The notes under the pieces are model-generated. The model saw nothing but the letters and a program-made list of their open reading frames with translations. It had not been told where the DNA came from and did not search any database. Shown in pieces: positions 34,325 through 38,988 of a stretch of DNA of 64,000 bases (position 1 is its first letter; each line of letters begins with the position of its first letter). This stretch comes from Enterobacteria phage GiZh, in the sequence record NC_054903.1, one strand, 5' to 3'. The position numbers were made by a program, and so were the translations under genes.

Positions 34325-34525
34325 ATGGTACAAAAATTAATGGCACTTGTTAATGCCATCAAAGGTAATAAGAAACGTATAGCTTTTACTATTTCTGCTA
34401 TGGTAGGAATTTTACTCTGGAACTTTATTTTATCACCAATTGCAATTGCACATGGTGTTAATATTCCAGTAGTTACTCTTGATACATTTGTAGATTTAGC
34501 ATTTGCTTTAGTTGGGTTAATTTAA
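34325..34525 (+). CDS. small two-helix membrane protein (66 aa), the only + strand ORF in the early region
   Basis: perfect SD AAGGAGG 5 nt before ATG; hydrophobic; stop overlaps gene 61 stop on opposite strand. Confidence 0.5.
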   Translation: MVQKLMALVNAIKGNKKRIAFTISAMVGILLWNFILSPIAIAHGVNIPVVTLDTFVDLAFALVGLI

Positions 34526-35550
34526 ATCTTAGCATATTTAGATAACCGCATTTTAGCCATCAACCCCTGGGCAATATTATTTTTCATATATTCCATAATT
34601 TGTTCAGGGGTTGCACCTTCCTTTCTAATCATATCATTAACATCTTTTGATTTCCAGGGAGATTTATCCCAAAACATAACCCTTTCTCCTGCATCAACTA
34701 ATTTAGTCATTCGCTTAATAGTGTCAGGATGACGAGGTTCATTATCTAAGACCCACACACGCCTATCTTTAAATGGAACAACTTCTAGGTCTAATTGACC
34801 ACCCGTAATAGCTATACCATTTTCAATAAAAAGTGAATCTATAGGTCCTTCTAAAACATATACATCACCATCTTTAACTCGTTCGACTCCATATATTTTT
34901 GTTGCCTCAGGATAAGCTTTGATGGTGATATATTTTTGAGGAGCATCTTTCTTTAATGCACGTCCTTGAAAAGACTCAGCTTTTCCATTAGCATTATAAA
35001 TTGGAATAACAAGACGAGGCTCAGAAATTTCCTTTTTGTATGTTCCCGGTGCTATGCTATTAACTAATTTAGGCCATTCAGTTGTAAACCAAAGATATTT
35101 CCATTTATCCTTTGGAATACAACGAGCTTTTACATATTTTATAATTGCATGGTCTTCCGCCAGTTTATCTAATCGAACACATGACGGAAGAGATTTAATT
35201 ATTTTCTTCTCAGGTTGTTTAGGAAGTTCTTTAGGTTTTTCTACTGGACGACTTTTACCTTTTTCTTTTCTTATTTCAAAGATATACTCACGATATAAAT
35301 CAGGTTCAAACTCCTTTAAATATATTCCGATTGGTGCATGATAGTTACAGTTATAACAATGAATATTTCCTTCATTATTATCACCATAATACCATCCACG
35401 AGCTTTATTCTGGTCGGTTTTTGAATCTCCACAAACAGGACATCTAAACCGTAATTTAAAAGTTGAACTATTATTTACTTGTGTGAATTTAGGTAAATGA
35501 GCTAATGCACGGTATGCAAACTCATTATCAATCCAAGGTATTGATGACAT
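34522..35550 (-). CDS. 61: DNA primase gp61
   Basis: 342 aa, same as T4 gp61; N-terminal zinc ribbon CPVCGDSK...CYNC and TOPRIM region. Confidence 0.9.
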   Translation of the reverse strand: MSSIPWIDNEFAYRALAHLPKFTQVNNSSTFKLRFRCPVCGDSKTDQNKARGWYYGDNNEGNIHCYNCNYHAPIGIYLKEFEPDLYREYIFEIRKEKGKSRPVEKPKELPKQPEKKIIKSLPSCVRLDKLAEDHAIIKYVKARCIPKDKWKYLWFTTEWPKLVNSIAPGTYKKEISEPRLVIPIYNANGKAESFQGRALKKDAPQKYITIKAYPEATKIYGVERVKDGDVYVLEGPIDSLFIENGIAITGGQLDLEVVPFKDRRVWVLDNEPRHPDTIKRMTKLVDAGERVMFWDKSPWKSKDVNDMIRKEGATPEQIMEYMKNNIAQGLMAKMRLSKYAKI

Positions 35551-35713
35551 TTTTACTCTTCTTTTTCTTTAGATTCCTCTTTTTTTTAGGAATCTGTTCA
35601 GGACCTTTATTTACTACAGCGCCTGATGTTGTTCCAGTAGAGATATTTTCAGGATTACCACCTGAATCTCCAGCTACCATATCTTCTTTAATAAATTCTT
35701 TATATGTTTTCAT
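35528..35713 (-). CDS. hypothetical basic protein (61 aa)
   Basis: ORF overlapping gene 61 start by 23 nt. Confidence 0.4.
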   Translation of the reverse strand: MKTYKEFIKEDMVAGDSGGNPENISTGTTSGAVVNKGPEQIPKKKRNLKKKKSKNVINTLD

Positions 35714-35760
35714 ATTAACCTCTATTCATAAAAGCATTAAAAATTTGGTCATCAATAGAT
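35711..35760. repeat. ~50-bp direct repeat copy 1 (3' end of 118-aa gene and downstream)
   Basis: about 48/51 identical to 36069..36118. Confidence 0.8.
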
Positions 35761-36071
35761 GGAATAGCAACCTTTTCGGCATCATTTAGCAAATCATTAA
35801 TTTCATCAGATAGCATAACACATGTGCCTTTATTTCCTGTAATTGTTACTGCGCAATTACGAACGTTTTCTTTATCAAATTTTAGGTTAATATTTTCGTA
35901 GTGAAAATCCTTTAATGCCGAATATATCTTTAAAATGAAATTGTCTTTTACTACAATAAACCCAACCTCACTATTAAAACGCGGTTCATGGAAACTGTAA
36001 TAAACCTTTTCATCTATAAAATCGTATGAAATTTTTTCCATTTTTAAATATGAAAATTCAGAACTATACAT
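35715..36071 (-). CDS. hypothetical protein (118 aa), one copy of a repeated domain
   Basis: homologous to C-terminal half of the neighbouring 210-aa protein; ends DDQIFNAFMNRG. Confidence 0.5.
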   Translation of the reverse strand: MYSSEFSYLKMEKISYDFIDEKVYYSFHEPRFNSEVGFIVVKDNFILKIYSALKDFHYENINLKFDKENVRNCAVTITGNKGTCVMLSDEINDLLNDAEKVAIPSIDDQIFNAFMNRG

Positions 36072-36118
36072 ATTAACCTTTATTCATAAAAGCATTAAAA
36101 ATTTGATCGTCAATAGAA
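36069..36118. repeat. ~50-bp direct repeat copy 2
   Basis: matches 35711..35760. Confidence 0.8.
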
Positions 36119-36705
36119 ACTTTTACTTTAGGCTGTTCTTCAAACGGTAATTCATATCCACATATTACAATTTTGTGATCGATACCAAAATACACAGAAG
36201 CAATATTATTAATATTATTTTCAGTGAAATCTAAATCAACATCAATATCTTTTTGACTAACGCTCAAAGGATAATTAATACGAATAATTCGATTATCTTT
36301 AACAAAGATTCCACCGACATACTCTGTGCTGCGTTTAAAGTTTACACGTTTCCTAAATGAAAAATATTCAGGTTCTTTATGCGCTCGACTCATAGGGCTT
36401 AAAGTGTATTCCGAATATGAAATATCAAATCCTACACCTTCAATATGAGCCAAAGTGTCATGATTAAACCAATTATAATCGTATGCCAAATCCATTAAAT
36501 TGTAATATGTGAAAGGCACCGGATTAACATCATATGTTGTACCTTTAAAATCTGCCCAGGCAACGATTTCGTTATCTTTAACAATTACAAAAATTGTGCC
36601 AATAAGATATCCACGGTTATTTTCATCAGGTGTTATATTATAACATTGTGCATCAGGAAATTTACCGTATTTAAACGGTGGATTTTTGTGCATATAATAA
36701 ATCAT
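36073..36705 (-). CDS. hypothetical protein (210 aa) with internal domain duplication; positional equivalent of T4 61.2
   Basis: two (F/I)VKDN-containing repeats; ends DDQIFNAFMNKG. Confidence 0.55.
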   Translation of the reverse strand: MIYYMHKNPPFKYGKFPDAQCYNITPDENNRGYLIGTIFVIVKDNEIVAWADFKGTTYDVNPVPFTYYNLMDLAYDYNWFNHDTLAHIEGVGFDISYSEYTLSPMSRAHKEPEYFSFRKRVNFKRSTEYVGGIFVKDNRIIRINYPLSVSQKDIDVDLDFTENNINNIASVYFGIDHKIVICGYELPFEEQPKVKVSIDDQIFNAFMNKG

Positions 36706-36706
36706 A

Positions 36707-37000
36707 TTATTCGCCTGTGATTTCGGTTACGATATTTTTGTTATTAAAGTTTTTATCGCAATACAGAACATAATTATACTGCATTACACCACCAGACTTA
36801 AGCTGTTTTTGTACTTCAGCTTTCATTTCAGGACGATCGCGCTCAACGATATTCATAATATCCGCTTCAATTTGAGTTTCAACTTCAGTCTGATCTGCAG
36901 TCATAGACCATTCACACAAATCTTTATCATAGCCTGCCATAGCAGGCTGAGCAGCACAAGAAGCCAAAGTAAAAATTGTAGCAAAAATAAATTTTTTCAT
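36707..37000 (-). CDS. sp: Spackle (Sp), periplasmic superinfection-exclusion / lysozyme-inhibitor protein
   Basis: 97 aa with signal peptide; same length and position as T4 sp. Confidence 0.8.
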   Translation of the reverse strand: MKKFIFATIFTLASCAAQPAMAGYDKDLCEWSMTADQTEVETQIEADIMNIVERDRPEMKAEVQKQLKSGGVMQYNYVLYCDKNFNNKNIVTEITGE

Positions 37001-37060: not shown

Positions 37061-37318
37061 CTATTTTAAAACTTCTGCGTAATCACATGTTACAAACTGT
37101 TTCTCTAGCTTAACGATTTTACGAAAATGCCTTTTACACTGACGAATCTGCCTCTTCGTAGGACGTACAACAAACTTAATAAATTCCACTCGACCAAATG
37201 GAGGACTTTCTTCTGCTGGAATATCTAACACCAATTCCCATGTATCCGCAATAAGCGCTTTGAATTGCGTATTTTTCCTGACGTTATACGGAGTAGGTTT
37301 AAATAAAACAATATGCAT
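37061..37318 (-). CDS. hypothetical basic protein (85 aa), positional equivalent of T4 61.4
   Basis: immediately upstream of dmd. Confidence 0.5.
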   Translation of the reverse strand: MHIVLFKPTPYNVRKNTQFKALIADTWELVLDIPAEESPPFGRVEFIKFVVRPTKRQIRQCKRHFRKIVKLEKQFVTCDYAEVLK

Positions 37319-37319
37319 A

Positions 37320-37502
37320 TTATCCTCGGCAATCTACTTCACATACTTTCTTGTCATCAATGAAAGCTTTAACTAATGCTTTATTAACTTCAGCATATTG
37401 AGTAGTAGCCCATTGAACGTCATCTTTCATCATTGTGATTTCTTTAGTAAACATGCTTTCATTCTTAAACCACCCCATAAAAACTACCTTTACCAATTCC
37501 AT
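37320..37502 (-). CDS. dmd: Dmd, inhibitor of host RnlA/LsoA toxins
   Basis: 60 aa; sequence recognised. Confidence 0.85.
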   Translation of the reverse strand: MELVKVVFMGWFKNESMFTKEITMMKDDVQWATTQYAEVNKALVKAFIDDKKVCEVDCRG

Positions 37503-37560: not shown

Positions 37561-38988
37561 CTAAAATTTTAATTCATTTGCCAAAGCATCTAACTGAGCT
37601 CGAGCGGATTCGTTTCTTTGATAGCGATTCTGTTCAGCCTGAATCTGCTGTGAACCTGCTACTTCGTTCACTTCAGTTGGAGTAGAATCTTGTTCAATTT
37701 CTACCCATTTTTGATTTCCTTTTTGAACACCCATCAAAAACTTATTCCACTTATTCTTATCACCATATCGTGATTTGATTTGCTTAATAAGTTGTTGTTC
37801 AGCAGCTGCCAACTCCTCGGTTTCAATGACCGCAAGCATAAAATCGGCTGTCGCTGGAAGACCAGCAGATTCTGCGATATCACTCATGTTAACATCAGAA
37901 GAATCCCAAGCTTGTTTACCAACCTGTGCTGCAGTCCAAAGAACAGTTTCGGTTTCAACAGCAAGAGCACGCAATTCCTCTGCAATAGCTTTAACAGTTG
38001 TGTAACTATTTTCTGAATAAACTCTAATGCGGCAAGATTTACAAATACCTAGATAGTCGACAATAATGATTGTTGGAACAAAATTCTTTTTGAGCTTCAA
38101 TTCATTCAAGAGAGACCTGAATGTGTTAGCATCTGCTCCACCAGTAGGGTACTGTTTAACGATTAAACGACCAAGAGTAGATTTCTCACGCCATTTTTCC
38201 ATTTTTCCTTTATACTCAGCGTAAGAAATATGTCCATCATCAATATCGTCAAGAGAAACATCGAGCATGTTAGCATCAATACGTTTAGCACAGACTTCTT
38301 CTGCCATTTCCATGGAAATGTAAAGAACATTATGTCCGAGCTGTAAATAATCTGCTGCCAATGAACACAATCCTAATGACTTACCAACGTTAACGCCAGC
38401 CATTAAAACGTTCAGCGTTCCAGTTTCAGCTCCGCCTTTCGTAATTTTGTTTAGAATTCTGAGTTTAAATGGAACCTTACGAGCTTTATTCATATAAGAT
38501 AGCCAACGTGCTTCGTAGTCATCCATCCAATCATGACCAACGTAGCTATCAAATGAAATTGATAATGCTTGACGCATGATGTCAGGAATAGCACCAACAT
38601 CCGGCATTTTCTTATTTCGTTTTTCCGGAGGAAGCTCAGCATTAGTTTGAATTTCGATTATTTTAGACGTAGCATTAAACATCGCCCTTTGCTGAACATA
38701 TTTTTCTGTTTCTTTTACTAACCAGCTGTGGTCTTCTGGAGAATCGGCTAGTTTTGAAATAAGTGTTTTTACACCAGAATATTCCGTTTCAGTAAATGAA
38801 CTATTTTCTAATGCAACATTTAACGCATTAATAGATGGAACGCTATGATACTCATTAACATGAGATTTAATTAATTTGAATGTATTTTTAGCTGGACCAC
38901 TTTCAAAATATTCTGAATCCATATATGGCCAAACTTTTGAAAAATAAGCTTGATCAAATATGAGATGAGAAAGAATAATTTCTACCAC
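37561..38988 (-). CDS. 41: replicative DNA helicase gp41 (DnaB-like)
   Basis: 475 aa, same as T4 gp41; Walker A GVNVGKS. Confidence 0.9.
   Translation of the reverse strand: MVEIILSHLIFDQAYFSKVWPYMDSEYFESGPAKNTFKLIKSHVNEYHSVPSINALNVALENSSFTETEYSGVKTLISKLADSPEDHSWLVKETEKYVQQRAMFNATSKIIEIQTNAELPPEKRNKKMPDVGAIPDIMRQALSISFDSYVGHDWMDDYEARWLSYMNKARKVPFKLRILNKITKGGAETGTLNVLMAGVNVGKSLGLCSLAADYLQLGHNVLYISMEMAEEVCAKRIDANMLDVSLDDIDDGHISYAEYKGKMEKWREKSTLGRLIVKQYPTGGADANTFRSLLNELKLKKNFVPTIIIVDYLGICKSCRIRVYSENSYTTVKAIAEELRALAVETETVLWTAAQVGKQAWDSSDVNMSDIAESAGLPATADFMLAVIETEELAAAEQQLIKQIKSRYGDKNKWNKFLMGVQKGNQKWVEIEQDSTPTEVNEVAGSQQIQAEQNRYQRNESARAQLDALANELKF

Follow-up and report, generated by a model that had tools for sequence, protein, structure and literature searches.

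A single-module AdfA paralogue and a conserved C-terminal tail at the sp-61.1 locus of Enterobacteria phage GiZh

Two adjacent genes of Enterobacteria phage GiZh (NC_054903.1) end in the same peptide and, around their stop codons, in nearly the same DNA, which raises the question of whether such a repeat is the trace of a recent event or a conserved part of the genes themselves. This was addressed in a window of 64,000 nucleotides (nt) of the record, to which all positions refer. The two open reading frames (ORFs), of 210 and 118 amino acids (aa), lie on the minus strand in a region 98.7% identical to many Tequatrovirus isolates, and their boundaries in the ORF list are those of an initial annotation, which had taken the repeat for a recent duplication or gene-conversion tract able to mediate copy-number change. 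The observation itself was confirmed and its interpretation is partly supported. The locus is an "anti-toxin island" of a Tequatrovirus, consisting of adfA followed by a translationally coupled single-module paralogue, here called mini-AdfA. The best explanation overall, which we regard as probable, is that adfA and this module paralogue carry a conserved tail that doubles as a recombination joint. The features that bear on this are the following:

36073-36705, minus strand: adfA (T4 gene 61.2), 210 aa, anti-DarT factor A (PF23813, PHROG 3781, synteny)
35715-36071, minus strand: mini-AdfA, 118 aa, single-module paralogue of the C-terminal half of AdfA (BLASTP, PF23813, PHROG 4122)
36069-36117, minus strand: repeat copy 1, comprising the last 14 adfA codons (SIDDQIFNAFMNKG), TAA, T and the ATG of the mini gene
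35711-35759, minus strand: repeat copy 2, comprising the last 14 mini-AdfA codons (SIDDQIFNAFMNRG), TAA, T and the ATG of 61.1

AdfA and its single-module paralogue

The 210-aa ORF matches the Pfam AdfA family (PF23813) over model positions 1-211 with 461.7 bits (cut-off 27; E=3e-139), shares 73% identity with T4 gp61.2 and 81% with RB69-like proteins, and is located between sp and 61.1/61, as in T-even-type genomes. By sequence and position it is an orthologue of AdfA, a known gene. AdfA neutralises the DarT1 ADP-ribosyltransferase toxin through direct binding, with position 164 of the RB69 protein setting specificity: His is the DarT1-neutralising residue and Arg the inactive one, expression in trans of AdfA(RB69 R164H) or of T4 AdfA neutralises the toxin, and two-hybrid data show the active allele binding to DarT1 (PMC11257639 / PMC11825919). 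These binding and neutralisation data come from the literature and cover the RB69 and T4 alleles only. With the numbering offset derived from primers in PMC11257639, the RB69 gene beginning MHKNAPFK, position 164 corresponds to residue 167 of the window protein; in the alignment the window protein has Asn at this site, where T4-like sequences have His and RB69-like ones Arg. The window adfA is also an intragenic mosaic. Its N-terminal half is near the RB69-like alleles (nonsynonymous divergence, dN, 0.05; synonymous divergence, dS, 0.45) and far from T4 (dN 0.31, dS 1.21), and its C-terminal half is nearer T4 (dN 0.06, dS 0.30) than the RB69-like alleles (dN 0.15).

The initial annotation had described two copies of a domain marked by (F/I)VKDN within this ORF. 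Both motifs are present, as IFVIVKDNEIV (residues 38-48) and GIFVKDNRII (residues 132-141). An AlphaFold2 model with a mean per-residue confidence (pLDDT) of 65 shows two successive five-strand-plus-helix modules, at residues ~3-79 and ~100-173, followed by a tail helix. Alignment of the two halves by hhalign, from very shallow profiles, gave P=0.002 and superimposes both (F/I)VKDN hairpins and both helices; a 13-nt exact DNA match at the VKDN motif is not significant alone. AdfA is thus probably, as modelled, a tandem of two such modules ending in a 14-residue tail: the motifs stand as described and the domain repeat is probable, the statistics behind it being weak. The parts of the protein concerned are:

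36469-36648, minus strand: AdfA N-terminal module (~residues 20-79, with IFVIVKDNEIV), from AlphaFold2 strands and helix and hhalign P=0.002
36187-36366, minus strand: AdfA C-terminal module (~residues 114-173, with GIFVKDNRII and the specificity helix, 162-173), from AlphaFold2 and hhalign
36205-36207, minus strand: Asn167 codon of AdfA, equivalent to RB69 AdfA position 164 and situated on the C-module helix, from alignment and translation

The 118-aa ORF is related to the second of these modules. It aligns with AdfA residues 111-210 by BLASTP (38% identity over 106 aa, E=9e-12) and scores 34.1 bits against the Pfam AdfA model (cut-off 27) over positions 113-211 only, a match that takes in the specificity-residue helix and the tail. 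PF23813 is also precomputed on the mini homologue clusters (P0001-P0005), and the protein has a PHROG of its own (4122), separate from that of AdfA (3781). Its AlphaFold2 model, built from a 14-row alignment, is compact and confident (pLDDT 81.5, predicted template-modelling score 0.70), with five antiparallel strands, a helix at 67-78, a short strand, a helix at 89-101 and the tail as a low-confidence terminal helix (residues 106-115). By model and alignment the two-module architecture of AdfA is not found in mini-AdfA, which has one module and no N-terminal module. A Foldseek search of the model against BFVD gave no more than four significant hits: one mini homologue, one AdfA-like protein of 212 aa, one Yersinia phage protein of 157 aa and a 145-aa protein of VR25 belonging to the third type described below. 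From this sequence evidence the 118-aa ORF encodes a one-module protein paralogous to the C-terminal half of AdfA and is a new member of the AdfA family. The proteins thus do show detectable similarity to each other, and the earlier proposal that the 118-aa ORF is a further copy of the AdfA domain is borne out; the wider idea of three copies of one domain is probably right, with kinship between the 118-aa protein and the C-terminal half established and the relation to the N-terminal module carrying the uncertainty of the hhalign result above.

The mini gene has a dN/dS of 0.17-0.32, between-lineage comparisons included, over dS values from 0.4 to more than 2 (up to 2.2), and is therefore considered a real protein-coding gene under purifying selection. 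It occurs at 60% identity or more in 297 phage records, and in two phage lineages most of the genomes sampled have it as an unbroken ORF of 116-122 aa. The residue aligned with RB69 AdfA 164 is N, H or D in the mini proteins. In L044 and in FL12 (L050) the A6 run after Met11 of the mini gene, equivalent to ~36036-36041 in the window, is A5, and the mini gene of BCH953P2 (L018) has two deletions of 1-2 nt; these frameshifts may be artefacts of sequencing through homopolymers, or they may be genuine inactivation or slippage.

Concerning the range of the family, word-indexed homologue searches recovered only 5 clusters with mini-AdfA and 16 with AdfA as query, and an exhaustive HMMER search with an AdfA profile of 1.84 billion representative proteins recovered only AdfA itself and five AdfA-length fragments. 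The family appears, as far as these searches reach, to be confined to T4-like enterobacterial phages.

The shared tail and the 49-nt repeat

A repeat search of the window revealed one outstanding direct-repeat family, of 49 nt, with 46 of 49 positions identical on re-alignment and a spacing of 358 nt, close to the ~50 bp and ~94% identity first noted around the two stops. Its 30-nt core, allowing up to 3 mismatches, occurs at only those two sites in the window and in none of 100 shuffles. On the gene strand each copy reads as 14 terminal codons (SIDDQIFNAFMN[K/R]G), TAA, a single T and the ATG of the next gene, and it also holds the Shine-Dalgarno sequence of that gene inside the last two tail codons. 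The ORF translations agree with the common C-terminal peptide claimed for both genes, the 210-aa ORF ending in ...SIDDQIFNAFMNKG and the 118-aa ORF in ...SIDDQIFNAFMNRG.

Related loci were drawn from IMG/VR, metagenomes and INPHARED. The tail, with the consensus S[IV]DDQIFNAFM[NK][RK][GD], ends three gene types at sp|61.1 in the Tequatrovirus, RB69-like and Gaprivervirus-like phages sampled: the AdfA type (208-216 aa) in Tequatrovirus and RB69-like phages; the mini-AdfA type (116-122 aa) in Tequatrovirus and Gaprivervirus-like phages; and a type-3 protein of 145 aa (MINRNLVIKKLRCKNPNAQAY..., PHROG 8539), encoded alone or directly upstream of the mini gene. Pattern scans find one or two copies of it per genome, all of them at sp|61.1, and the gene that starts 1 nt past its stop varies: it may be 61.1, mini-AdfA, a 63-aa ORF or a second paralogue of tifA. 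Tails of different lineages and families resemble one another as closely as do the two in the window; 3 nt separate the type-3 tail of L012 from the distal window copy. When the tail-less bodies were compared by hhalign, P was 0.014 for the AdfA C-terminal half against mini-AdfA and about 0.1 for type 3 against either, the weakness being due to very shallow profiles (effective number of sequences 1.3-1.9), so that the type-3 link rests on the tail, synteny and the Foldseek hit. At the type-3-only loci L012, L014, L017 and L045 the ATG-initiated ORF has only 122 aa, with an internal Met start and without the MINRNLVIKKLRCKNPNAQAY N-terminus, which may reflect N-terminal disruption or an alternative start.

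Among 51 tails, the nine DDQIFNAFM codons show eight kinds of synonymous variant and zero amino-acid changes, an exclusively synonymous variation that indicates selection on the peptide. As judged from these sequences the tail is an old motif conserved at the protein level and not a recent duplication. The C-terminal clamp-binding motif of T4 gp45 partners is (S/T)LDFL(F/Y). Comparison with the window gp43 (ASLDFLFG) and gp55 C-termini led us to reject a clamp-binding identity for the tail: the motif does not fit, SIDDQIFNAFMNRG having only S-[IL]-D and the C-terminal location in common with it.

The junctions that the tail forms are also translational. Its last two codons are the downstream Shine-Dalgarno sequence (AGAGGT), and the gap between stop and start is 1 nt in every case. 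Before the mini gene these codons are weakened, to AAAGGT, AGAGAT or CGAGAT (NKG, NRD or KRD). GAGGT is found before 61.1, the 63-aa ORF and tifA2, with the exception of one weakened tifA2 case in L035, and also in T2-type genomes, where mini is the only family member. This suggests that mini expression is tuned when a partner gene precedes it. A stricter rule, that the adfA tail before the mini gene always ends in NKG, was discarded, as FL12 has NRD; the weakening of the Shine-Dalgarno codons ahead of the mini gene still holds. Folding of 86 nt around each junction was no more stable than shuffles (z = +0.4 and +0.9), no terminator-like hairpin was found on the gene strand from the dmd promoter-like site (37560-37532) to gene 61, and a promoter scan yielded weak matches only (9 of 12), which were no more numerous than those in shuffled sequence, and nothing specific to the junctions. 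Cassettes of the PeSL kind, known from hyperplastic regions of T4-type phages, are flanked by an early promoter plus a stem-loop. The locus shows no such arrangement, having no hairpin, promoter-like matches at the level of shuffles and no stable junction fold.

Locus states and the repeat as a recombination joint

The initial annotation had tied the repeat to copy-number change, and comparison with T4 61.2 and its relatives bears this out, revealing three locus states. In a three-way alignment T4 equals the window arrangement minus exactly the 358-bp segment between the repeats, and the adfA tail of T4-type genomes is that of the mini gene (repeat copy 2) over all 45 coding nt plus TATGAAAACA, the 61.1 start. 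At all four T4-type loci examined (T4, L007, L008 and L009) adfA is joined to 61.1 through a single retained repeat copy. T2-type genomes have a single common junction, sp-TAAT|TAGAGGTTAGTATG-mini, in which 14 nt of the adfA tail are kept. L047 combines a T4 allele of adfA with a mini gene, the tails differing at 1 nt, and is an obvious substrate for an adfA-61.1 crossover. On this comparison of sequences, the repeat acts in nature as a joint for recombination, and a precedent from this same region, with exchange at short homologies, is on record (10.1101/2022.04.14.488369).

Among INPHARED Tequatrovirus records, 156 have the contiguous adfA-mini junction and 141 have the T2 junction with mini only (297 mini records minus 156). 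Full-length AdfA occurs in 485 records, about 146 of which fall in an 80-90% identity band made up mainly of RB69-like alleles; the rest of the 485 include ~180 T4-type records with adfA only. Roughly a third of the sequenced Tequatrovirus genomes is in each state (adfA plus mini, mini only, adfA only). A tandem adfA-mini-mini product was not seen among two-copy loci, the pattern scans finding at most two tails per contig without being exhaustive over all records.

The neighbouring genes are, from the distal end:

34522-35550, minus strand: gene 61
35528-35713, minus strand: gene 61.1, 61 aa here (PHROG 1823; alignment with T4 and T2), translationally coupled to the mini gene via TAATATG
36707-37000, minus strand: sp (spackle; Pfam T4_Spackle E=6e-45), its stop 1 nt ahead of the adfA ATG
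37061-37318, minus strand: tifA (61.4; Pfam DUF7279), a known anti-toxin gene in the same co-oriented cluster as dmd
37320-37502, minus strand: dmd (Pfam Dmd E=2e-46)
37561-38988, minus strand: gene 41

By Pfam hits and synteny this is the T4 61.1/61.2 region beside sp, 61.4 and dmd, as had been proposed from position. The T4 gene order is the same except that the 118-aa ORF is absent, and in T2 that ORF is present, annotated as "61.2", with no adfA. The association of the area with anti-defence is likewise confirmed, and for adfA it is already published: 61.2 is AdfA (anti-DarT), 61.4 is TifA (anti-ToxN; the two names are equated in 10.1101/2022.04.14.488369) and dmd is anti-RnlA/LsoA.

Some further differences were observed around these genes. 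The 61.1 product has 61 aa in the window and 54 aa in T4 and T2, owing to a 4-nt difference in a poly-A/G run (CCTAA----AAAAAAGAGG; A-run ~35575-35590) that shifts the frame, so that the C-terminus becomes ...KKKRNLKKKKSKNVINTLD and the overlap with the gene 61 start is 23 nt; the metagenome contig L041 has the same 61-aa form. In RB69-like phages (L010, 3079-3546, and others) the 61.1 homologue is not a free-standing 54-aa gene; it is the C-terminal third of a 155-aa protein, this third corresponding to PHROG 2086 positions 109-154. Gaprivervirus-like and related phages carry, directly after a tail-bearing gene, a second TifA paralogue of 73 aa, 35-43% identical to 61.4/TifA and additional to the tifA copy upstream of sp (L005, 2859-3080; L006, 2811-3032; L012-L017, ~2562-2783; also L035 and L045). 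It is followed by a conserved 63-aa ORF (PHROG 3249), which is also found after adfA in RB69-like phages.

Competing explanations and related systems

If the island reading holds, AdfA and mini-AdfA would be stoichiometric toxin binders whose modules carry specificity for other DarT variants or toxins. Mini-AdfA may then be a further protein that binds or inhibits in this way, directed against another DarT variant or some other toxin; its equivalent helix position also varies (N, H or D). The modules would supply specificity, the invariant tail would contact a constant partner or mediate oligomerisation, and presence or absence of the cassettes would be shuffled by homologous recombination at the tail.

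The alternative first put forward treats the repeat as the trace of a tandem duplication of recent date or of gene conversion still in progress, conserved through homogenisation and not through function. Consistent with this, codons at identical residues in the window are the same at 10 of 12 positions in the tail against 7 of 25 in the bodies (Fisher p=0.002), independent codon draws would give two or fewer codon differences with a probability of 0.04, the two tails of the near-identical genomes L006 and L021 are identical over 36 nt, and across Tequatrovirus genomes the GAT/GAC variants of the D-D codons are distributed over copies 1 and 2 in shuffled combinations. The similarity of tail codons in the window is explained equally well by strong constraint on codons and nucleotides. 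Any duplication must also be old, as the gene bodies share only 38% identity and their synonymous sites are saturated. A third family, barely related to the other two, has the same tail, and so do single-copy genes in RB69-like phages and in the type-3-only L012-L017 group, where there is no conversion partner. In L005, L019, L020 and L043 the tails within a genome are no more alike than those between genomes, and the restriction of DDQIFNAFM variation to synonymous changes points to selection on the peptide. In a concerted-evolution test on the Gaprivervirus-like two-copy genomes, general within-genome homogenisation of the tails was not found, those of genomes other than L006 and L021 differing at 4-5 positions, by synonymous or conservative changes. 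We attribute the bulk of the nucleotide identity to constraint on the peptide, to AT-biased codon usage and to the Shine-Dalgarno and start that the repeat contains, with occasional exchange possible and not required. Homogenisation is accordingly improbable as the source of the conservation, and a recent duplication or conversion tract is not supported, because the same tail, with synonymous variation, ends three protein families across several lineages. A still less probable view, to which we give very little weight, is that what conserves the nucleotides is not the peptide but a signal in the RNA or for translation, for example a coupling hairpin or the initiation region of the downstream gene. 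The embedded Shine-Dalgarno, the constant 1-nt spacing of stop and start and the correlation of the last two codons with the downstream gene are in line with it, yet such a signal could cover only ~12 nt, folding around the junctions does not exceed that of shuffles, and upstream third-codon positions vary between lineages where amino acids do not.

That the 118-aa ORF is the decaying remnant of a duplicated adfA, without function of its own, and the repeat its leftover homology, is very unlikely. The frameshifts in FL12, L044 and BCH953P2, the absence of the mini gene from ~180 T4-type genomes and the DarTG1 sensitivity of T2 without adfN despite its mini gene would fit decay; the low dN/dS at considerable dS, between lineages too, the intact ORF in most sampled genomes of two lineages, the confident compact model, the retained coupled start and Shine-Dalgarno, and the 141 T2-type genomes in which mini is the sole family member retained all argue for a functional gene.

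The anti-toxin island with its dual-role tail remains the preferred explanation, and several points weigh against it. The AdfA model is of low confidence (pLDDT 65), and the window protein has Asn, not the "active" His, at the specificity position, which bears on the activity of the allele and not on family membership. T4 AdfA is not needed against either DarTG1 or DarTG2, which makes the natural target of the family as a whole uncertain; in a T4 transposon screen only adfN (against DarTG1) and tk.4 (against DarTG2) were conditionally essential. T2 lacking adfN, with the mini gene present, loses 4 logs of plaquing on DarTG1 (PMC11257639 / PMC11825919), and mini-AdfA at native level therefore does not neutralise that DarT1. 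The inhibitor role of mini-AdfA is putative, and its gene is frameshifted in three assemblies, by sequencing error or real decay. The locus states, finally, could descend by deletion from an ancestor with both genes, or the two-gene state could have been assembled when T4-type and T2-type genomes underwent unequal crossover.

A bolder version, possible though rather unlikely in our estimation, is that the tail is a portable anchor peptide acting on a constant partner, so that the modules are exchangeable anti-toxin cassettes and the tail DNA is the joint for their swapping, loss and stacking. The partner may be a conserved surface of DarT-type toxins, the tail itself (in AdfA, mini and type-3 hetero-oligomers) or a replisome component at the forks where DarT acts. 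If this were true, sp|61.1 would be a cassette system for counter-defence specificities, and T2, described as lacking adfA, would carry a different specificity.

Several known systems resemble the locus in part. With published AdfA (T4/RB69 gp61.2, PF23813; LeRoux et al. 2022, as cited in PMC11825919) the 210-aa ORF shares a full-length Pfam match and the sp-61.1 position; it differs in having Asn at the His/Arg position and in being accompanied by a 118-aa protein of separate PHROG that lacks the N-terminal module. Published work describes T2 as lacking adfA (PMC11825919). The T4 TifA/Dmd "anti-TA island" (toxin-antitoxin; Srikant et al., 10.1101/2022.04.14.488369) belongs to the same co-oriented cluster, encodes small toxin-binding inhibitors and likewise changes copy number through recombination between short direct homologies. 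The dmd-tifA amplifications of T4 were selected in the laboratory and are flanked by 6-10-bp microhomologies (10.1101/2022.04.14.488369), whereas in the window the homology is of 49 bp and inside coding sequence, as a conserved protein tail, and presence/absence states occur naturally, with no amplification observed. AdfB of the Vibrio phage ICP1 is reported to be a small protein of allele-specific activity that seems to counter DarT through contact with the toxin itself, and both AdfA and AdfB are described as without homology to known protein families (PMC11481870). AdfB thus resembles AdfA as a small phage anti-DarT protein of allele-specific activity; the AdfA-profile search described above recovered AdfA and AdfA-length fragments only. 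Cassettes of polymorphic toxins have a conserved junction motif, such as VENN in CdiA. By analogy, both have a short invariant coding motif beside variable modules that could serve as a homologous joint for cassette exchange; unlike VENN, the tail motif lies at the 3' end of the cassette, the proteins are inhibitors and not toxins, and there are no orphan arrays.

AdfA is a published counter-defence protein and is dispensable against both tested DarTG systems. Scoring the presence or absence of adfA understates the family, which comprises three related, tail-sharing cassettes in combinations that differ between otherwise near-identical phages. The scoring of the locus changes accordingly: T2 and 140 other "adfA-less" phages carry the mini paralogue, and the window allele adds a third residue, Asn, at the specificity position.

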